A stretch of DNA of 64,000 nucleotides from a virus (IMGVR_UViG_3300012927_000004); one strand, 5' to 3'; shown: positions 1,793 to 53,358, counted from the first letter of the stretch. The notes: generated by a model not told the origin, from the letters alone. Numbers and translations: made by a program.

Positions 1793-4700
1793 ATGCCTTC
1801 GCTTGTTGTTCCTCAAATCGAGTTGGATCGCCTGATTCAGTTAATATTGGATCATTACAAATTTCAATACGGAATCACCGTAACAGCCGACACGATTACT
1901 GCTTCATTCATTCAACCTCGTGTCGGTTGGATAACAGGTTTTGAAATCGTCAGTAATAGTGATTCAGATAATTTTAGTTGTCGTTTTTATATTAACTATA
2001 CTTCTGATTATAAATCAAATCTAGATCCTTTTCAGATTGAAGAAATCATTAACACATCTTATACATCCGGATTAGCGAATAATCGATATGTTTGCTATGC
2101 AGTTCTTCCCAGGACTCAGTTTCCAACACTATCTAAATATGTTTTTGTACCCGTAGACGACGGGGGTGGTGGAAGTCCAAGTACTTATACTGTAGGATTT
2201 CTACAAACAACCGGTAGTGTTGTTTCTGGTCAATCTCTTGACATCAATATTGGAATTGATAGCGCACCTTCTGCAATTGTTACAGCTCACTACGCTTCTG
2301 CTAACGGAACCGCTGTAGCATCAGTAGACTATGTCGCTCTTGATGGAACTACAACGTGGGATGTTAATGATGGCGTTCAGAAAACAATTACACTTTATAC
2401 TGGTGAACCCTATTATTATCATTGGGTAGCCGGATATGATACATCGCAATTCACACTTGTTGACAGTGCCGATGGTCTTATTTATAATGCGACGAATAAC
2501 GATACCCAAAATACTTACTATCCAAGTATTCGCACTTTCAATCTCGCACTACCATCAGTAGATCAAAACTATTATCACGAGTTCTTATTTGGGCCTAATG
2601 GATTCCAACAGCATATAACTATTGAAATCGATATCAATACGGTCGATGGTAGCGGAAATACGAGTAGCTCATTTTACGCAGCGTATTTACAATACAATAC
2701 AGGCACTAATGTATTTGATGCTCAAATCTATTCTACTTTTAATGGTCAAAATTTAACACCACCAAATCCAATTACGATGCCAGTTACCATTGGGTTCGAA
2801 ATAAATCATGATTCGGCAATTAAGTTCTTTATTAATGATACTTGGTATAATGTCGATGACTTCAGTTTCAATTCTGATGCTTCTCAGATCGCTTTCTCTG
2901 ATATGAGTTATCTATCTGGTTTGACAATTACGAGTGTTAATTTATTGATTACTTTTGATCTAACAACGAACGGTGGTGGATCAAATATCTTTGATATGAC
3001 TGCAAAGGTATCACCAAATCAAATCCATGTACCGTCAGATGCGATTAGTCCACCAGCTGGTTATATCGGAACGTCGGGTGGTACGCTAAGTCTCACGTTG
3101 AGTAATCCTAGCAGTAATGCTACAATTGGTACTACTACAGATAACATAACGATTTTAGATGCGAATGTTTGTTATCAGAAACTTATTGTGAATGATGATG
3201 AAACCGGATTTGATAATTCAACTGGTTCCATCATAACAGGTTATGGTGGTATTCATTATCTCTATACGAATGTGAATTGGAGTAATACTACATCAAGTTG
3301 TGGTGTTATTGCTGATCTTCGTTTAACTGCAACAAATGATCCAACTCAACTTGGTGTTACTGATTTTAGTCAGACGCCATTAACAGCAGCAGGAATTACT
3401 AACTTCCCAGTATTTCCAAACATCATGATCGATGATGTTCGAGAAGTTACTACGTTCTCATGGCCTAATGGTAAATTTCCAGTTTCTGGAAATTTTAGTT
3501 TTAATACAACCGATAATGATCTTCCTTATAATCTTACCCTTAATTCAGATGGTAGTTATGAGGTAAAATTCAGATTCAGATCTTTCCCAATCTCTGGTCA
3601 AAGTAACTTGATGTATAAGTTAATGGATTATAATAATACAGATACGAAGGGTTCACTTCCTAAACTTAATAAACCCAGTCTATTAATCCAGTCTTATGAC
3701 GGAACTAGTGCATACATCTTGATTTATTCAAACGATGTTTTATATGATCATACCGGTTCTGTAATTAACCAAGGTTATACTTTCACATATACACTAGACG
3801 GCTCTGATCCTAATAGTGGTGGGTCAACCATTTCTTCAGGTAGTCAATTCCAGACTGCAGCTACTCCTGGAACGATTGTAAAATTTAAAGCATCAGCTAC
3901 AGGGTTCACTGATAGTGACGTATCAACCTGTACTTTGAACTACTTTACTCGTGATCTTACTTTCCCTTATTTGACAAATAGTATTTCTGGGAATACAAAT
4001 AACATTTTCTATTTCAATGCAGATGGACCATTTACTGGGTATGAAAGTATTCTGATTACACTTACTGATCAGAATTCTAGTCCTGGATCTGACACAATGG
4101 TATATTCTTTTGATGGAGAAACATGGCATGATTATACAGCACCATTTAGTTTCCCTGTAGGATGGAAAACTCCAATTGGTAAGGCTGGTTTTCCATCCGT
4201 ATTTTACTATACCAAACAAGCAAATACACATACATCGAGTATTGCAAATCTTAATATCTTTATTGAATACCCCAGTCGTAATCTAACATTTGTTCCAAAT
4301 CAAAATGATACAAGTGTTAGTGTTGCCAACAAAACAGTAACACTTGTCAATACAATTCACAACAATACTGAATTAGTTCCTGTTGCATATTTCCAAACAC
4401 ATGCAACATGTACGGATGATTTTCGTTATATCGAAATGAAATGTACCAATCTTGTTGATCAAGATGGAATTCTTCAGATTCATTTTAATTCTGTTGGATT
4501 TGGTCAAGACGGACATGTTTATCCGACCAATTATAGTCCTGTTAGTGTTCCAGCTCTTGCTTGGACTGTGGGTGATACACTTTGTTTCTGGTATAATTAT
4601 CTTAATGGATCGTTCCAAGTAAGAGTTAATAATGGTGCTTGGCAGAACACATCACAAGAATTGTTTTACACAACGTATTCTGAATTCAATATGGGAATTC

Positions 4701-7646: not shown

Positions 7647-8366
7647 TTAGGCTCGTAAGATCTTTTCGATCTTTCCTGTTTTAGTTGAAGGATTTACAAT
7701 CGCTGAAACGATACCGTCGTGAAAATAAGCACCGGACAATTTACTGACCGTATTATTCACGGCGTATAAGACAGACTTCAACGAAATGAATTCGATCTTA
7801 TCCAAACCATAGTCATTAATATCTTTAGCAGTTTGTCTCAAAGACTTTGAACGCTCTTCAATCCGACGGGCGATAACGCCTACTAAGAACTCAATAGTCT
7901 GTGGAACTTTAGCGATTTTAGATCCAGCATGTTTATCGGCTGTATCAAAAATTGAACATAAGTCATCGACATTTGCCCACCAAGGAACCTTTCCTTTCAT
8001 AATAAATTCGTCTAATACGTTAAACGTCAACGTATCTTGACGTATCAATTTTAATGAACGAATAATAGGCGTATCGATATCAAAATGGAATTCATAATAC
8101 GATTCTTCTTCAATAGTCGCCATCGTTGTACGAGAAGGAGTTAAATCCATCAGTGAACAAACGTTCATTACAGTATAAACATCATCTTCGAAGAGTATTG
8201 GAAAGAATCCATAAACAGACGTGACATCTGTAATACTCCCCAGTCCAACATTCATCCATCGCTCAGGAACCTGTATACGGCAAGGTACTCGTGTGAGTAC
8301 CTTGCCGTCTTCTAATACAGTTAAACGATCGAGACAAATATTTTTGTCACGTTTGAATAAGGTCAT
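7647..8366 (-). CDS. hypothetical protein (239 aa)
   Basis: Long ORF. Its start shares 1 nt with the upstream gene's stop, and 2 nt separate it from the protease gene downstream. Confidence 0.6.
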   Translation of the reverse strand: MTLFKRDKNICLDRLTVLEDGKVLTRVPCRIQVPERWMNVGLGSITDVTSVYGFFPILFEDDVYTVMNVCSLMDLTPSRTTMATIEEESYYEFHFDIDTPIIRSLKLIRQDTLTFNVLDEFIMKGKVPWWANVDDLCSIFDTADKHAGSKIAKVPQTIEFLVGVIARRIEERSKSLRQTAKDINDYGLDKIEFISLKSVLYAVNNTVSKLSGAYFHDGIVSAIVNPSTKTGKIEKILRA

Positions 8367-9841
8367 TAAATCCTGACGATTTGAATCTGACCTTGGAGAT
8401 AATCGACGATATAATTGATCGTCGCAATGAACGCTGCTTCTTCGGGTGAGGTATTTTCACTCAATGTTCCGATCTCCTGCATGTCGTTCACAAACTTTTC
8501 GGCATAAGTAAAGTGATATTTATAACCAGCGATCAGTTTCTTTGCCATTGTCTGTACATCACAAAGTGTTTCTTTCCTCAGACCGTGGAGATATTTCTCC
8601 ACTTCTTTCTTGATATTATCATGACAAGAAGGATTCCTCAATAGGAACGATTGTTCCAGATCTTCTTGATAATCAGCTGTCATATATCGGCAGAACAGAT
8701 CATAATAGAACTTACGCAGACTTGCTGCTTTAGTGTATTCAAGACTTTCAAGATAAACCTGAACGTACTTCTTCCAGGTGTCTTGAAGCACGATAGCGTT
8801 CTTATCGATCTCACTAACCGAATAGAAACGCTTGGAACCCACCAGGATACCCATGATGATATCAGCATTACCACCAGCGGTTAACCAACGATCATACACT
8901 TCTGACGAAACTGTGATTTTCTTGTGGAACGTATCCACATAAGTAACCAGGATATCAGATTTGTTATTGTTACTGATACGACCCAGAGTATTAATTAACA
9001 CTGTTCCTGCATAAAACATATGTTCGAACAAACGATTCTTCACTGAAGCAGTTGATTCGTTCGTGATCATATCGGGCAGATGATTCGTGTAATAGTTAGC
9101 AATCAGAAAATAAGCTAACGACACATTAAGTCGAACATACATATCAGGAGAATTCATATCGTCTTGACTGACGAAAGAACCTTTATAGTTCCTATTCACG
9201 TTAGAGCTAGCAAAGAAACTATACCAGACAGAATCCAGATATTTGAACTGGTTGGTAACATACCAACTCGCTACTAAATTATCCAAAGCCGTATTGCTGG
9301 TCGAAGCGACTGTCAAGAAATCATCCGGAATACCCATGTCGAAATTTAACGTTGAGGTATTCGGATTAACTGTTTTCTTGTATTTGAATGTTTCCAGAAG
9401 ACTTAAGAAACCAGCTTCCTGAACAATATCGGGGATGCTAGTACGACAGATCTCGAGTTCAGAAGCTGCATTGGATCCACCCAGCATTTCCATGAAAGCT
9501 TGGGAATCTTTAGCAAATTCTATTGTACGAGGGACTACCGTGTTATGAATATAACTGATGTGAGCTTTGATACACCCCGTCAATTTCTCCACACTGGAGT
9601 CGAATGATGCCCCCCATATCACACCAAAATCACCAGCGCTATGGAATTCCAACATATCGCTGTAGAAGTTGAGGTTGTCATCATAATCGATAGGAGCTGG
9701 CACCGGTCGATCATTTTCAATCGGTGTCGAAAGTCCGACGAGTTCAGAAAGCACACTCGACATAGAAGGCTGAAGTAGGATACCCTTCTTCGCCAGATCT
9801 TCTGCAAATGCAGCAGCAGTATTAAACGAACGTCCAAGCAT
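8366..9841 (-). CDS. hypothetical protein (491 aa)
   Basis: Long ORF in the same operon-like run. No motif recognised. Confidence 0.6.
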   Translation of the reverse strand: MLGRSFNTAAAFAEDLAKKGILLQPSMSSVLSELVGLSTPIENDRPVPAPIDYDDNLNFYSDMLEFHSAGDFGVIWGASFDSSVEKLTGCIKAHISYIHNTVVPRTIEFAKDSQAFMEMLGGSNAASELEICRTSIPDIVQEAGFLSLLETFKYKKTVNPNTSTLNFDMGIPDDFLTVASTSNTALDNLVASWYVTNQFKYLDSVWYSFFASSNVNRNYKGSFVSQDDMNSPDMYVRLNVSLAYFLIANYYTNHLPDMITNESTASVKNRLFEHMFYAGTVLINTLGRISNNNKSDILVTYVDTFHKKITVSSEVYDRWLTAGGNADIIMGILVGSKRFYSVSEIDKNAIVLQDTWKKYVQVYLESLEYTKAASLRKFYYDLFCRYMTADYQEDLEQSFLLRNPSCHDNIKKEVEKYLHGLRKETLCDVQTMAKKLIAGYKYHFTYAEKFVNDMQEIGTLSENTSPEEAAFIATINYIVDYLQGQIQIVRI

Positions 9842-10063: not shown

Positions 10064-11179
10064 TTATTCGTTATACAACTTGACCGCATTCTGAGCAAAC
10101 AATTTCAGAAGCGTAATGGTAGTACCCAGGATATAAGGAGACATCACATTACGAGCTGCGATGGACCGACATCCAAAAACCGCATCGATTTCTTCACCTG
10201 CTTCTGTATAAAGTTTGTAATCCATGACTTCTGAGTTAACACTTTTCATTTGATTCGCGAAAACCACCTTATCAGCAATTCCCATATTCATGTTAACAGT
10301 GATATAGAAACGAATCTCGGCTTTATTCAAACCAAGCGGCGTTCCTTCAACACGATAATCGTCAGTCACTTCCCCAGTAAACTTGGGTTTATGGGTGCTT
10401 TTAGCTTGTTCAGAAATGAATTGATCGCTAAGATCAGCTAATTTACGGAGAGAAGAACTCATCTGTTCCTTATCACCGTGATAGAAGACCTCTATACGAT
10501 CCACAATTCCGAAATAATTGGAACGAGGAGATTGCTTAGAAAGACCTTTCAGTGTCTCAATAGCGTTCTCACCAAACGTTCCGATTTGAGATGTTATTTC
10601 ATCTTCGACACTCATTAAAATGTCTTGTGGTTTAACAGTTTGAGAAGGTTTTACAACATGATGAATATTCTGTTCGAATGTCACCACAAAACTTCTCAAG
10701 TAAGTAACCCTAGTCTCAAGCTTCTCTGATAACTTTTTCGAAATAGAAGAAGCATCTTCATGAGTTTGTTTGGTTTCCCATAATACAGTTTTAGCTGTCA
10801 ATGAGTTTTTCATCACAAGTTGACCAGGATTCCAAACATCATATTCGAAATAAGAAATGTTATAAGCAATGGGATCTCCCTTCTTAAAGGACTCCCCTTC
10901 CTTAACAGATGCTTCGATATCAAACGGAAAGATCGATCCTTCAGATCGACCAAACTGACGTCCTAATTCAACACCGATCATTTTACCACTTTTGTATTGA
11001 ACAACAACACCTTTATCAGTTACCTTAGTAACAACACCATCCTCTTTTGCACAGTAAGCAAAAAGAGGATTTGTCCGTTGTGCAATAATCGATTCAAATC
11101 CAGTTCTTACAAAAGGTGGGTGATATCCTTTTGCTGGAATGCCGTGACTATTCTGAATTGAGATGAAATTGATACGATT
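10064..11179 (-). CDS. multisubunit RNAP beta-like subunit, exon 2 (371 codons)
   Basis: 'ISIQNSHGIPAKGYHPPFVRTGFESI..GVVTKVTDKGVVVQY' aligns with E. coli beta '[32 protein letters not shown]'. 'ADKVVFANQMKSVNSEV..IDAVFGCRSIAARNVMSPYILG' aligns with '[36 protein letters not shown]'. The frame stays open upstream of the annotated Met back to a TGA at about 11192..11194. Confidence 0.8.
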   Translation of the reverse strand, partial: NRINFISIQNSHGIPAKGYHPPFVRTGFESIIAQRTNPLFAYCAKEDGVVTKVTDKGVVVQYKSGKMIGVELGRQFGRSEGSIFPFDIEASVKEGESFKKGDPIAYNISYFEYDVWNPGQLVMKNSLTAKTVLWETKQTHEDASSISKKLSEKLETRVTYLRSFVVTFEQNIHHVVKPSQTVKPQDILMSVEDEITSQIGTFGENAIETLKGLSKQSPRSNYFGIVDRIEVFYHGDKEQMSSSLRKLADLSDQFISEQAKSTHKPKFTGEVTDDYRVEGTPLGLNKAEIRFYITVNMNMGIADKVVFANQMKSVNSEVMDYKLYTEAGEEIDAVFGCRSIAARNVMSPYILGTTITLLKLFAQNAVKLYNE

Positions 11180-11687
11180 CATCGAGAATATTCAAACAAA
11201 CTCGCTAGGTCTGTTTCGCGCCATTACGCGCAGCTTTAGGTCTCCCTAAAGTCTAGGTCATATCTTCACCCACAGCTTAACCTGGTTGGGTGCTTCCCAT
11301 TTCGGATCGCTTGATCCTACAGGCTGACAAAGCCCTGACCGTCGAACCTTCTCCATATCCGAAGACGTAGGAGCTTGGCTGCTGATTGTCTCTACTCCGG
11401 GCTTTTCCAACCCTGGCTTTGTCTTTCGACTCGCAGTGGTGACCGGATTTGACGAGATGTTCCAGCAATTAAAGAAGATTCAACTGTAGATTTCTCTACA
11501 GTCGGACTATAGTACGAATAGATGTATCCATCGGGATAAACACCTTTGTTATTGTTGGTTCTAAACCCCATGTTAAGTGTGGTTTTCTTGATATTGAATC
11601 AAGAAAAAATCAACAATAACAATTTACGTACGTTCAATCGTCGTGCATTGCACCCGCTGCTAAAAGAACAGCCGAACAGTGTCGATT
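11180..11687 (-). ncRNA. ORF-less group I-like self-splicing intron in the RNAP beta gene (boundaries predicted, +/- a few nt)
   Basis: - It splits the conserved beta 'ANR......MQRQAVP' block.
- R-like 'GGUUCGACGGUCAGG' (11334..11348) and S-like 'GAAGAUAUGACCUAGAC' (11251..11267) can form P7 (GGUCA/UGACC).
- P3 candidate CAAAGCC (11415..11421) / GGCUUUG (11328..11334) directly abuts P7.
- Several hairpins are GNRA-capped, for example 11483..11502 and 11232..11253.
- GC content is much higher than the surroundings.
- With these boundaries the 5' exon ends in U and the intron ends in G. Confidence 0.65.
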
Positions 11688-14600
11688 AGCATTTTGGACT
11701 TCCGCATCATGATTCTTAAGACCACGATGATTACGAAGATGAGGATCTGAAGAGGTATAGATATTAACACCCACATCAGAACTATCTACAGTTCCTTCAG
11801 AGATTACACCGACATCTTGAACATGAAAAGATCGAGAAGCTTTATTCATTCCATCAGAAGAACGACCGCCTTCTCCAACATAGGTTACACTTTCATCATT
11901 CTTAATGTCTTGAATCGGATTGATTTCAGGAACTAACATTACAGTTGGATCACTGTTGATAGCTGACCAGACCTTATAAGGACTGATATCAATCTTACTT
12001 CGACCTGCTATGTTCTTACTCCGGAACTGACGAATAGCTGCCGTCATTTCTTTATAGACAGCACCAGAGAAACGTTCATATCCTCGAATACGTGTATAGG
12101 AACCATCGTATTCTTTTGGATGTTGATATGACATTAACATTTCAGTAGCTTTCAAAAGTAATCCATCGAAAGTCACTGGTTCATTCATGTCTTTTAATAT
12201 TTCTTCAGTGATAGGATCGATGAAATAATCAAACAACATATCAATCTCACGAAGATAGATTGCACCTAGACCTTTACTGGTTAAGAGATTCATGTAGATA
12301 TCTTGATGTTCAAAATCCTTAACACTTGCCGATTTCGTCATCTTGGCATAATCTAAGAATCCAGCCAGTATCATTGTTGCAAAGTGATTTTTACGAGAGA
12401 AGATATAAACACCGTCATTAAACGGAATGGGATATTCATCTGGCGTAAGATTCAATCGTTTCTTTGGTTCAACAAAACGTGGTTTGACTTCCAATAAAGC
12501 TAGAAGTTTAGACCACCCCAATCGGTAACCTAAAATCACACCTACTGGCACATTTTTGCGAAAGATTGCTAATTCACTAAAACGAATAGGTGAGTTATGA
12601 GGATCCAAATTAAGAACTTTAAAGATATCCCCAAAAAGTTCTAATTTTCCTTCTTTTAAAATATAAAAGTCATTATTCATATCAACCCAAAGAAGTCCGT
12701 TATCCGGAGCATGTCCACACCACCGCATACCTTCTCTAGGAGATGACATCCTAATATTCTTACCGTTATCGCACATCAAAGAAAAGCCTCCTGCTTTAAA
12801 GGAGACGAAGCTTGTTGAAAGTAAACCGAAGATATAAGGTATCTTGGCATAAGAATCAAAGGTATTACCAGGTACTACATCTTTGATCCATTCACTACCT
12901 TCAAAAGAAGCCTTATTGATTTGCTTTAAGATCCAATCAGAAGTGCTATTTGCAATTTTACTTTCCGAAGAAACAAATGCTTTTCCATAGTAGCTATTCA
13001 GAGAGACTTCGTTCGGACTGATCTTACGAATCGGTAAGTCTGCACGATTCTTTCTAAGCATATAACGGTTACCCGCTACCTTAAACGAACCGTCATGTTC
13101 AACGACTGGAAGTTTAAACCAAATTGAAGAAGCAGTACCATTGATAGGTTTCAATTGTAGATTATGAATTTCTACATTTCCCATCACGGTATGTTCTTGA
13201 GTGATCTCATGTTTTTGAATAATGACACCACCCTTCTGAAGACCACCCACCATTTTAATAACATCATTCTTCATGTGTTCATCGATGTAATCACGAGTAT
13301 AACTCTGAAGTGTACTTTGAGTCATGCTCTTATCAATGATAGTTGGATGATCGGCTAACTGTGTCTCACTTGAATGAATGATCAGTTGTTCTGGATGGAT
13401 TTCAGTCTTTTGAGCTGTTAAATTACCACTACCATAAGGGTCTAACATCTTAATATAAGCATCGGCATCTTGAAGCGCTTTCTTATAAGAAGCAGCATTC
13501 AATGTTCCATCTTCTAATGCTTCGACCATTTTCTTCTTTAAGGCATTATTAGGTATTAATGCTGTATGAACTTCTTCATGAATATCTTCGTGGTTATAAA
13601 CTGTCGTAGGATGAACTTCTACAACTTCGTTATCTTTTAATGAAATACCACGCTTATGAAGATCAAAACGATTCTTTTGTTCCAGAATCTCCATATCGTC
13701 ATTCAGATTCTGGATGATATTATCGCTAAGTTCATCGATTGCATCGATAGATTTCAAAGGTTCTTGAAACTTCTTTTCTATAGGGGGGGTTATATTCTTT
13801 TGTTGAAAACTTTCGATCGGACCTTCGTCGATGTAATCGTGTTCATCATTATGATCTTCAATCTCTTCAACAGTTTCTTCTGTCTGAGGAATAGTTTCAG
13901 CTGCATCTTCAGGAATCGCAGAAGAAATAACCAATAGGTATTTAAGTAAAGCTCTAACCATGATCTTACGATCACGTTGTAAAGATACTTTAATCGTAGA
14001 GACGTTTTCATCACCTTTGATCCAACTATAAAAGTACGAAAGGTTCAAAGTGCTACAACGTCCATCTGCTAACATGAAAACCATGTTAATCTTCTTCAGT
14101 GCTTCAATAGGAATCAAATTGAAAACACTACGATCTCTCAACTCGTCTTTGATAAAATTAGACAAATGAAGAATCAAACGTTTCTCATGAGTATTAAATA
14201 AACGAGCTAACGTCATACCTTCTTTATCAGAATAATTCAACAACATGTTATAACTGGGGATATTAATGATTGGATCCAAAAGAACAAAATGTTGACGATT
14301 AGATTTTAATGCCAATGCACCAATATGTGACCAGAATGTTTTCTGATAACTCTCCCATTTCTGATATTCGGAAATGGGAGTATGAACATATCGATATGTG
14401 AATTTCAATGGATTGTAATCCACCACAATCATCGTACGTTCATCAATTTGTATGTCAGATGCTCGAGGAATATAACGAAACAGATTATGTTTCTTGATGA
14501 ATGGTAGAATAAAACGTTGTGGAACAAACGGAAGTGTTCTTGGATGCCCTTCCATTAAGTCACTGTGATAAACCAGTTCTAAAGGAAGACGTTTGCTATA

Positions 14601-14771
14601 TCCTTGAAAATAAGGTTTTGATGCATCTGGAAACATTTCATCATCTTGAGTGAAATGATGCAACATTGAATTACGAGGAAATCCTTTAAAGATTTGAAGA
14701 CGTGGAGATATCAGTTCGTTAAAACGACGTACTCCTGTCTCACGGTAAAATTGCGTATAAAGTTGTAACAT
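11688..14771 (-). CDS. multisubunit RNAP beta-like subunit, exon 1 (1028 codons; ORF track reads through to a stop at 11634 inside the intron)
   Basis: 'YVGEGGRSSDGMNKASRSFHVQDVGVISEGTVDSSDVGVNIYTSS' aligns with E. coli beta '[43 protein letters not shown]'. 'HDAEVQNANR' aligns with 'HDDANR'. Confidence 0.8.
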
Positions 14772-51717: not shown

Positions 51718-53097
51718 TTATATAACAGTTATGTAACTATATCCATCGATATGTTGAACACGTTGACAGTATCGATAAGAAGGTTGATAAATCTTTTCAT
51801 TTATTTTAAAAACAAACTTACCAGAAGCTCGGCATACTACACGACTGACCTTTGACCAAAGTGGTGGGTTAATACCAGATTTGATAGAAGATCTTACACG
51901 AACAAGATCACCTGTTCTGAATCCAAAGAAATATTTCTGTCTAGGTATATAAGCTTTAATAAAACCATATTGGTCAGGTATTGCTCTTTGATATCTACCT
52001 CTACCATTACATTTTATATGTAATGTTTTATGAATCCATCCATGTATTTTAACTATATAACCAATACAAATAGCATCTAGAGCATGAGTTTTGGGTATTT
52101 TAAAACGTAATCTATTAAATTTCGTTAACCCACCACTTCCAGTTTCAATTAATAAACCAGTTTTAATAAGTGCTAATCTAAGTTCATTTCGTATAGCGTT
52201 CATAACCGCCATATCTCGAAGAGGTTTTAATATTTGTTTCTTAAATTTATCTATCTTAATTTGATTAAAATTTAAGAACTCTTGATAACTTTTATTACCT
52301 TTAGTTTGATTACACTCTTTGCAAGCAAGAACTAAATTAATCAAACGATTAGATCCACCTCTACTACGAGGAATTACGTGATCTATTTGAAAACCTTTAG
52401 AACACCCATTTCCGCAGTAAGCACATTTATGATCGAATTTAAGTAATAAATATTCACGAAGTTCGTATCCTAATAATGTACCTTGTTGATACATTATGCC
52501 TTCTAAATGAGTATTTTGAGCCAGTTGTGTATCGAACTTAACATCCTCATAAACAATTTTAGTAATTGGAAACCATCGTCTAAGTCGATTAACCCAAGAC
52601 ATCGTGCTATCAATACGATGTTGGATAGAAGGAGGTAACCATCCTTGTGGTCTAGTACGATTTAAGAAACGAGCTTCACGATAACGTGTTTTACGCGAAC
52701 GCCTGTTACGGCGATGCATAGCTCGATTATAAAGTTTTAATTTAATAACACGGCCACGATGTTCTAATTCCATTAAACGAATAACTGTAATTTCGTTTGG
52801 TCTATCTTCACGCACGATAGCTAATCCGGTTGTTTTACTACCAGGATCAATTTTAATTTGTGTAGGTTGTAATTTACAATTGATTTGTGTTCGATCAAGT
52901 AATTGAATAATGAACGGTTCTCTACGAATTACCTTCGCACGACCTTTATCTAAAAGTTTCCTTGCACTTTTGCCACTACATGGCATTAGTGGTTTACCAT
53001 CACTTCCAATTACACTAACAAAAGTAATTGGTTTAACTTTTACTCGACCTGATTTTGAGATAACGATACGTCTTCCATTATTCTGTTTCTTTTCCAT
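51718..53097 (-). CDS. iscB: IscB, RNA-guided RuvC/HNH nuclease of the OMEGA family (459 aa from ATG 53097; ORF track extends to GTG 53175)
   Basis: These motifs appear in order: PLMP 'GKPLMPCSGKSARKLL'; RuvC-I 'IKIDPGSKTTGLAIV'; bridge helix 'HRRNRRSRKTRYREARFLNR' plus 'GWLPPS'; RuvC-II 'IVYEDVKFD'; HNH 'CAYCG..IDHVIPRSRGGSNRLINLVLACKECNQTKGN' (52297..52425); RuvC-III 'KTHALDAICIG'; and a C-terminal beta-rich ~100 aa. Confidence 0.88.
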   Translation of the reverse strand: MEKKQNNGRRIVISKSGRVKVKPITFVSVIGSDGKPLMPCSGKSARKLLDKGRAKVIRREPFIIQLLDRTQINCKLQPTQIKIDPGSKTTGLAIVREDRPNEITVIRLMELEHRGRVIKLKLYNRAMHRRNRRSRKTRYREARFLNRTRPQGWLPPSIQHRIDSTMSWVNRLRRWFPITKIVYEDVKFDTQLAQNTHLEGIMYQQGTLLGYELREYLLLKFDHKCAYCGNGCSKGFQIDHVIPRSRGGSNRLINLVLACKECNQTKGNKSYQEFLNFNQIKIDKFKKQILKPLRDMAVMNAIRNELRLALIKTGLLIETGSGGLTKFNRLRFKIPKTHALDAICIGYIVKIHGWIHKTLHIKCNGRGRYQRAIPDQYGFIKAYIPRQKYFFGFRTGDLVRVRSSIKSGINPPLWSKVSRVVCRASGKFVFKINEKIYQPSYRYCQRVQHIDGYSYITVI

Positions 53098-53358
53098 CAA
53101 AAATTCCAATAATCCCGTAAGGGACTTGTTAGTCACTCTCGCCAATGTTATCTTAAGTTGACTACTACTTATCACACTACTCCTATCTCACAGAGTTGTT
53201 TAATGATAAGACCATAGAGCTTGGAACTGAGTGGGCATTCCAAGATATGCATCAAAATAACGTAGTATTTTCATACTGAGGCTGATTCATCTAGTCTTAC
53301 AACTCACGTATTAAAGTGGAGTGGATGAACTTTTTTCCATTTTTAATGTTTTCCGAGG
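53098..53358 (-). ncRNA. candidate omega RNA (guide + scaffold) upstream of / overlapping the iscB 5' end
   Basis: A block of about 260 nt lies between the upstream gene's stop and the preferred iscB ATG, with no convincing coding function. It contains local stems, for example 53220..53244 (cttggaa/ttccaag) and 53113..53124 (tccc/ggga). IscB loci are known to encode their omega RNA at exactly this position. No covariance model was run. Confidence 0.45.

Follow-up and report, generated by a model that had tools for sequence, protein, structure and literature searches.

A predicted endonuclease-less group I intron in the virion RNA polymerase beta gene of a phiKZ-like jumbo phage

An intron in a conserved motif of the beta gene

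Here we analyzed a 64,000-nucleotide (nt) stretch of viral DNA, IMGVR_UViG_3300012927_000004 (the whole stretch is called the window below), in which the gene for the beta-like subunit of a multisubunit, virion-packaged RNA polymerase (RNAP) is broken into two open reading frames (ORFs). With a probability of roughly 0.88, we conclude that the break is an IA-type group I intron without an endonuclease, which would splice itself out of this essential gene and would be immobile on its own. The element lies on the minus strand at 11183..11636 (454 nt), is of subgroup IA-like structure, and contains no intact ORF; it was delimited by an Rfam RF00028 match, alignment, covariation, and a junction defined by homology. 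Comparison with relatives establishes its homology and a covarying RNA structure, and we infer catalytic activity in vivo. An earlier note, made from the window alone, had proposed that an ORF-less group I intron splits RNAP beta within the conserved ...HDD-ANR... block, and the Rfam match and the covariation bear this out.

The two consecutive ORFs, 1045 and 372 amino acids (aa) long and both on the minus strand, are parts of a single beta-like polypeptide, a homologue of the beta subunit in the virion RNAP of phiKZ-like phages; the ORF list and the homology agree with the earlier note on this point. The exon-1 ORF, gp178-like, spans 11634..14771 including its stop (exon 11637..14771, 1045 codons) and ends ...LLAAGAMHDD, while the exon-2 ORF spans 10064..11182 (372 codons plus stop) and begins MNRINFISIQ. 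Similarity to Thermus beta extends across the break, with the HDD of exon 1 aligned to Thermus EHDD. The insertion site in the ...HDD^xNR... motif (carets mark splice junctions throughout) corresponds to E. coli beta D675. As had also been noted, the spacer is richer in G+C than its surroundings (0.47-0.53 versus ~0.35-0.42 on either side).

Exon 1 ends at base 11637 with GAU, the codon for the second Asp of DD, and the intron opens with UGA, the stop codon of the exon-1 ORF. The intron ends in G 11183, directly followed by the ATG of exon 2 at 11182. The spliced product would be the two ORFs joined (1045 + 372 = 1417 aa, ...GAMHDD^MNRINF...), which restores the host frame and is collinear with uninterrupted homologues and bacterial beta. 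The predicted ligated junction reads ...CACGACGAU^AUGAAUCGU..., and the predicted cDNA across it ...GCAAUGCACGACGAU^AUGAAUCGUAUCAAU....

These positions differ from those first proposed, which placed the intron at 11180..11687 with the junction GCU^AAUCG...GAUG^AAUCG (cDNA ...CAAAAUGCU^AAUCGUAUC...) and treated the end of exon 1, HCSAVLLAAGAMHDD, as an out-of-context read-through tail. Relatives and uninterrupted genes contradict both limits. The tail is conserved coding sequence, and the Asp-Asp that closes it is the universal pair in the HDD-ANR motif of bacterial beta. In nine relatives the exon-1 ORF likewise finishes in this conserved segment (...ALL......DD) and stops 0-15 codons after it; examples are ...SAVLLAPGATHDD, ...SVVLMAAGAMHDD, ...SSALLAPAADRDDQ, and ...TAALLSVASDRDD, each followed by the stop, and gp211 of phage PhiPA3, ...TSALLAVGSMNDD^CYCLL... 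and then a stop. Uninterrupted genes read straight through the segment. For example, the phiKZ-type gp178 of phage KTN4 reads ...LLSTSALLGVATEHDD^PKRINFISIQ, with DD at residues 1071-1072, and FLC9 gp40 reads ...LLSPGSDKDD^AKRVNFVGIQ. The closest uninterrupted relative found, IMG/VR locus L014 (65% identical), reads ...LLAPGVMHDD^MKRVVFVSIQ. Because the tails of the relatives are conserved up to DD and the intron-less genes are continuous there, we place the 5' splice site at DD, 51 nt downstream of the earlier site. The 1399-aa product of the earlier note would lack this segment, losing 17 conserved residues (HCSAVLLAAGAMHDD and the following Met) and with them the invariant DD.

The 3' splice site was off by 3 nt, the terminal G being 11183 rather than 11180, 3 nt upstream. 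G 11183 puts a single residue between DD and (N/K)R, matching all homologues, and the 3' junction in PhiPA3, UCUCG^AUGAA, is the same as in the window. Only two contigs, L006 and L007, have an intron at this site without a G right before codon x of DD-x-(K/N)R. At the DNA level, the joined window exons, atgcacgacgat^ATGAATCG, match the uninterrupted L014 allele, atgcatgacgat^ATGAAGCG, both continuing ...^ATGAA. The MHDD-MNRINF product scores 34.1 bits against Thermus beta (EHDD-ANRALMG), versus 25.4 bits for the junction first proposed. The predicted splice-site positions are thus shown by comparison with other genes. The AAUCG repeat described at the two earlier junctions does exist, but it is irrelevant to splicing; two stretches of ~20 nt would, roughly estimated, share a 5-nt match about 1 time in 4.

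Ribozyme core and P1

As the earlier note had suggested, we searched with the Rfam group I model (RF00028, Intron_gpI), which matches 11234..11523 on the minus strand over its full length (1-253) at 60.4 bits (E 7.5e-13), above the gathering score of 50 bits. At the homologous position in L001-L006 and L009 the model scores 68-90 bits. Relaxing the cut-off to E <= 0.05 brought up no further RF00028 match in the 64 kb of the window.

To describe the structure, we aligned 10 same-site introns, those of the window, Pseudomonas phage HPP-Temi (L001), PhiPA3, and seven metagenomic contigs (alignment A2; mean column identity 58%), and wrote a structure comprising P2, P3, P4, the P5 extension, P6/P6a, P7, P7.1, P7.2, P8, P9, P9.1, and P9.2. 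In this structure 94.3% of cells are paired, versus 34-44% after sliding the partners by 1-3 columns. Compensatory changes on both sides occur at 59 of the 81 pairs, and none of 500 shuffles reaches any of the five measures used. The core helices are paired at 100% (P3), 97% (P4), 100% (P6), 100% (P7), and 92% (P8).

All helices are on the minus strand. P3 joins CUUCUU (11472..11477) with GGGAAG (11293-11298) and has 3 covarying pairs. P7 joins GGUCA (11336..11340) with UGACC (11256-11260); 3 of its pairs covary (variants GGUCA/UGACC, GACUA/UAGUC, and GAUCA/UGAUC), and its G-C pair 11340/11256 is invariant across the alignment. The R-like and S-like elements of the earlier note do pair as P7. 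The pairing it offered as P3 (CAAAGCC/GGCUUUG) fares less well, being 67% paired versus 61.6% in shuffles; its 3' strand is instead the 5' half of P7.1. P7.1 (11321-11335) and P7.2 (11304-11317), which together span 11304..11335, are 100% and 98% paired, with covariation at 4/4 and 4/5 pairs. We saw no three-way P8-like structure in the window, where P8 is a single extended hairpin (11267-11292). Further toward the 3' end, 11184..11251 holds P9, P9.1, P9.2, and a 10-nt tail before the terminal G 11183. Several hairpins carry GNRA loops, as had been described: GAAA in P2 and P5b and GAGA in P9. The extra hairpins P7.1 and P7.2 between the 5' strand of P7 and the 3' strand of P3 place the intron in subgroup IA, possibly IA2 rather than IA1, as in the classical phage introns.

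We saw no sign of decay in the core. The window has 5 private changes at otherwise invariant positions, within the range of 0-8 for the other nine introns. Two of these compensate each other in P7, replacing an A-U pair by G-C; a third alters a GAAA loop to GAGA, which is still of the GNRA type, and the remaining two fall in J6/7 and P5.

P1 ties the ribozyme to the splice site. Its 5' strand, GAU^UG (11635..11639), places the splice-site U 11637 in a U.G wobble, and its 3' strand is the internal guide sequence UAGUC (11505..11509), identified from the fold and by comparison. P1 proper appears in the unconstrained minimum-energy fold of 11470..11650 (z = -5.1). The exon GAU and the guide GUC are present in 20 of 20 correctly scored same-site introns (21 are listed); the PhiPA3 GAU/GUC pairing and the P1 row of L006, which has a palindromic loop, were read by hand. 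The extension of P1 covaries as well, with GUACG/CGUAC in the window, GACUGUA/UACAGUU in L005, AUGGAUA/UAUCCAU in L004, GGAAUA/UAUUCC in L057, and others elsewhere. The neighboring P2 hairpin (11481..11504) covaries at 9 of 10 pairs and also appears in the fold.

In the proposed reaction, which would follow the standard group I pathway, the GAU at the end of exon 1 and the first UG of the intron would pair with the guide UAGUC to form P1. An external guanosine would attack after U 11637, the freed exon 1 would then attack after the terminal G 11183, and ligation of the exons would give a single 1417-aa protein, ...GAMHDD-MNRINFISIQ....

Endonuclease remnant in the P1 loop

The loop of P1 carries an insertion (11525..11622, minus strand) with a 12-bp stem, an inner hairpin, and the remnant of an HNH endonuclease gene. 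A perfect 12-bp stem (11611-11622/11546-11557) and an inner 10-bp hairpin (11598-11607/11583-11592), both seen in the fold, enclose the remnant. From ~11592 downwards, about 30 codons resemble the C-terminus of an I-HmuI-like HNH gene, and the frame runs on as a 59-aa ORF (11392..11571). Translated in frame 2, intron nt 45-167 read IKKTTLNMGFRTNNNKGVYPDGYIYSYYSPTVE. In tblastn this matches the C-terminus of the L005 endonuclease (LKPTALNYRLKHAPEGKVYPDGFSYSYYSHVKE; E 5.6e-7) and residues 291-330 of PhiPA3 gp210 (E 4.6e-8), and the L002 endonuclease C-terminus is matched too. Limited to nt 1-112, which precede the RNA-constrained core, the comparison peaked at a local score of 48, versus 29.3 +/- 3.4 (maximum 41) in shuffles, none of 400 of which reached 48. 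Comparison with the relatives' proteins thus shows an endonuclease remnant in the predicted intron. The earlier statement that no homing endonuclease ORF is present holds for an intact gene (the longest ORF in the intron has 59 aa and no Pfam domain), but the C-terminal remnant had been missed.

The same bases hold a second resemblance. In frame 0, intron nt 61-111 (11526..11576, minus strand) encode LTWGLEPTITKVFIPMD, which resembles gp210 residues 55-72, LTWGRHRLLAFVYIPFD, with a score of 44, above 400 of 400 shuffles. Only one of the two similarities can be ancestral; the other must be fortuitous.

Relatives show what an intact gene looks like. Endonuclease ORFs of 268-345 aa are found in L002, L003, L004, L005, PhiPA3, and eight IMG/VR contigs. 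They start 20-70 nt past the 5' splice site, in the loop of the P1 extension, and end within the P1 3' strand and P2. Some 110 nt occupy this position in the window. All five endonucleases that were scanned combine HNH_3 with NUMOD1 or I-HmuI-like domains. PhiPA3 gp210, an enzyme of the same type, nicks the intron-less phiKZ gene (PMC11620839). Because the remnant matches the C-termini of these proteins, we propose that the window intron once had an endonuclease and lost ~0.85-0.9 kb of its gene. The ancestor would then have been a mobile intron with an I-HmuI-like HNH nicking endonuclease gene in its P1 loop. After the deletion in the genome of the window, the leftover ~30 codons, closed by the 12-bp stem, would keep the P1 strands near each other. 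The element would now splice but no longer drive its own homing, corresponding to the endonuclease-loss stage of the homing cycle.

Relation to known introns

Among known elements, the PhiPA3 gp210 intron comes closest; it interrupts the virion RNAP beta gene gp211/gp209 (Birkholz et al. 2024, Science; PMC11620839). It sits in the same host gene (the gp178 homologue) at the same point, directly after the DD codons. Its ribozyme is homologous and alignable throughout the core, and both introns are laid out as P1-P2-P3...P9.2 with P7.1 and P7.2 among the helices, although the host proteins of PhiPA3 and the window are only ~40% identical. By this likeness, the predicted intron of the window belongs to the gp210-type lineage of virion RNAP beta introns. 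In PhiPA3 the exon-1 ORF extends 15 codons into the intron, whereas in the window the stop is the first intron triplet. The main difference lies in the P1 loop, where PhiPA3 carries the 330-aa HNH endonuclease gp210 and the window only about its last 30 codons. The earlier note had placed the intron in a phage group where such elements matter for competition between phages, and PhiPA3 gp210 supports this (PMC11620839). Judged by its coding content, the window copy itself cannot exert endonuclease-based interference competition, because it has no endonuclease.

ORF-less introns of the same ribozyme family occur at the same site in HPP-Temi and in contigs L006, L007, L009, L017, L049, and L055. 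Their P1 loops are minimal or short, from 6 to a few hundred nt, whereas the window keeps a remnant in a hairpin closed by 12 bp. No endonuclease remnant was noted in L006, L007, or L009; L017, L049, L055, and HPP-Temi were not searched for one. The HPP-Temi intron (PP968062.1, 119660..120010; Rfam 70.5 bits) is unannotated, and that record shows two "RNA polymerase beta subunit" coding sequences and a 39-aa hypothetical protein.

The classical IA2 introns of phages include those of T4 td, nrdB, and sunY and the SPO1/SP82 DNA polymerase intron with I-HmuI. Shared with these are the phage-borne location at a conserved site of a gene for an essential nucleic-acid enzyme, the P7.1/P7.2 hairpins, and an I-HmuI-type HNH nicking enzyme, here in the relatives. 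The classical introns differ in interrupting genes of DNA metabolism and carrying the endonuclease in P6 or P8, whereas here the host is RNAP beta and the endonuclease, now lost, was in the P1 loop.

Distribution among relatives

We surveyed the 80 best IMG/VR loci obtained with an alignment as query and searched them for family introns with an nhmmer profile; the IMG/VR scan with a single protein query had found nothing, and the alignment query was needed. The beta gene is uninterrupted in about 60 of the 80 loci. An intron of the same family sits at the DD^ site in 12, of which 8 have an endonuclease gene, 3 have none, and one (L077) has the core matched twice in tandem and lacks a long ORF. 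All four nearest relatives of the window (L002, L005, L006, and L007; 69-78% identical) carry the intron, two with an endonuclease gene and two without. Among all same-site introns seen, ~8 of roughly 20 (~40%) are endonuclease-less. The homing cycle runs through invasion, fixation, endonuclease loss, and intron loss, and the sporadic pattern of intact, deleted, and minimal forms is what it predicts.

A second insertion point lies 12 nt downstream, at DDxKRV^NF, where L015, L045, and L086-L088 (5 loci, 3 distinct; ~2200..2600 in each) have homologous ORF-less introns, with nhmmer E values between 1e-37 and 8e-9. The motif is therefore a hot-spot for introns, in which two sites or more can be occupied.

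In some relatives the operon holds additional group I introns that Rfam recognises (L002 977..1270 and 8155..8464; L006 1836..2149 and 8061..8363; L007 6426..6743; L009 530..860). One kind lies upstream of beta, and the other near the 3' end of beta, with a 418-421-aa HNH/NUMOD ORF. The window has neither of these, and its exon 2 is continuous.

Farther afield, the ribozyme core of the window is 68-80% identical over 70-290 nt to introns elsewhere in phiKZ-like and unrelated phages. These include phiKZ itself (NC_004629, 50213..50506), PhiPA3 (116588..116762), the N4-like Pseudomonas phages PAP02, YH6, and LP14, and the Escherichia phages Pollock and nepoznato. Such similarities suggest one widely travelling ribozyme lineage.

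Alternative explanations

Several points weigh against an active intron. The Rfam score of the window is the lowest of the family, P1 proper has only 5 bp followed by an internal loop before the extension, and the private change in J6/7 is A to G. We sought a P10 pairing by eye and found nothing convincing. The protein similarity of the remnant partly overlaps RNA-constrained bases, which the test on nt 1-112 avoids. The PhiPA3 intron is itself called "putative" (PMC11620839), and a long-read transcriptome of phiKZ saw no spliced reads for three predicted phiKZ introns (PMC10914365). The two closest ORF-less relatives, L006 (5570..5892) and L007 (3888..4267), have A at the terminal position (...CUAAGA^CAAAAU...) where the window has G. 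Neither offers an in-frame, G-terminated alternative, and the L007 intron is below the Rfam gathering score. These two may splice unconventionally or have a truly split beta. Their lack of a terminal G means that not every copy of the lineage need be splicing-competent.

A truly split gene is the main alternative. Here the ribozyme would be inactive or no more than a relic, and the 1045-aa and 372-aa polypeptides would be made separately and assembled. The stop right after DD and the ATG of exon 2 do make two stand-alone ORFs, and phages of this kind naturally have split beta and beta' subunits, the adjacent 546-aa ORF matching only Rpb1 domain 1. L006 and L007, together with the phiKZ transcriptome, also fit this picture. 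However, the ribozyme core is clearly under purifying selection with compensatory changes, one of them private to the window, in P7. The ATG at 11182 has no Shine-Dalgarno sequence upstream, whereas neighboring genes have AGGA or GGAG, and exon 2 of other same-site introns opens with codons such as CCA, GCA, and GGA, which are not start codons. In addition, ~60 of 80 relatives encode one continuous chain through the segment. We consider a split gene improbable.

In a protein search with the exon-2 ORF, 94 of 94 matches were 207-434 aa long and none was full-length, though uninterrupted homologues of 1400-1500 aa are common in IMG/VR and GenBank. The idea drawn from these short matches, that a split is general in the clade, was rejected as a sampling artefact, given the ~60 uninterrupted IMG/VR loci.

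Less likely still is a pseudogene in which the intron decays as a relic, with a non-functional beta in, for example, a defective or misassembled genome. The low Rfam score and the deleted endonuclease could be read this way, but both exons are intact long ORFs without frameshifts or stops, 40-78% identical to relatives over their whole length. The operon order is as in phiKZ, and the invariant positions of the ribozyme are kept.

Equally hard to credit is the 508-nt version of the earlier note (11180..11687, GCU^AAUCGA...GAUG^AAUCGU, 1399 aa, ...EVQNA-NRINF..., with HCSAVLLAAGAMHDD as read-through), which is in frame, has a U ahead of the 5' site and G as its last base as the rules require, allows a 7-bp AAAUGCU/GGUGUUU pairing inside the intron, and lets phmmer align QNANRINF with Thermus DDANRALMG, but whose GGUGUUU strand sits in the endonuclease remnant (noted in none of L006, L007, and L009), whose dropped tail is protein-conserved in every relative and uninterrupted gene and ends in the invariant DD, which scores below the corrected junction against bacterial beta and does not reproduce the intron-less L014 DNA, and against which the P1 at the DD site has covariation support; on these comparative data we regard it as already refuted.

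Host gene and genomic context

In tblastn, the beta gene matched 311 phage records, and the query region is one uninterrupted stretch in 287 of them. The top matches are Burkholderia phage FLC9 (43%), Ralstonia phage RP12, and the phiKZ group, annotated as RNA polymerase beta subunit or virion-associated beta/beta'-like protein, equivalent to phiKZ gp178. Pfam gave no match on either beta ORF, the proteins being too divergent. Upstream of beta is a 546-aa ORF whose sole Pfam match is Rpb1 domain 1; downstream are a 491-aa ORF, a 239-aa ORF, and an S80 prohead protease. This neighborhood corresponds to the phiKZ gp175-gp180 block, with the order beta', beta, then S80 prohead protease. Judged by its genes, the window is from a phiKZ-like (chimallivirus-type) jumbo phage. 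No near-identical DNA, and thus no close relative, was found among GenBank phages.

Elsewhere the window carries an IscB-type locus in this jumbo-phage genome (51718..53330, minus strand). A HEARO/omega RNA (RF02033) lies at 53128..53330, with 100.3 bits against a cut-off of 83. The 485-aa ORF directly after it (51718..53175) has RRXRR (E 2.9e-67) and HNH domains.

Implications

The finding adds no new mechanism; the intron is a known kind of element, with the PhiPA3 gp210 intron as its closest counterpart. What sets it apart from that intron is the missing endonuclease, the source of the competitive edge of PhiPA3. The two "beta" ORFs should be annotated as a single 1417-aa protein with the junction after DD, and the same applies to GenBank records such as HPP-Temi. 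The PhiPA3 gp210 site is occupied in many uncultured phiKZ-like phages, with and without an endonuclease, and a second point 12 nt away is occupied as well.

It is conceivable, though we think it doubtful, that the endonuclease-less intron is kept as a passive shield, occupying and splitting the target of gp210-type endonucleases from co-infecting chimalliviruses. The escape mutations of phiKZ map 2 nt from the intron site. If this were true, the ~40% of same-site introns without an endonuclease would be "resistant alleles" maintained by phage-phage warfare, and the remnant hairpin would keep P1 foldable after the deletion. The intron and its relatives offer material for the study of the homing cycle and of intron-mediated competition in nucleus-forming phages.

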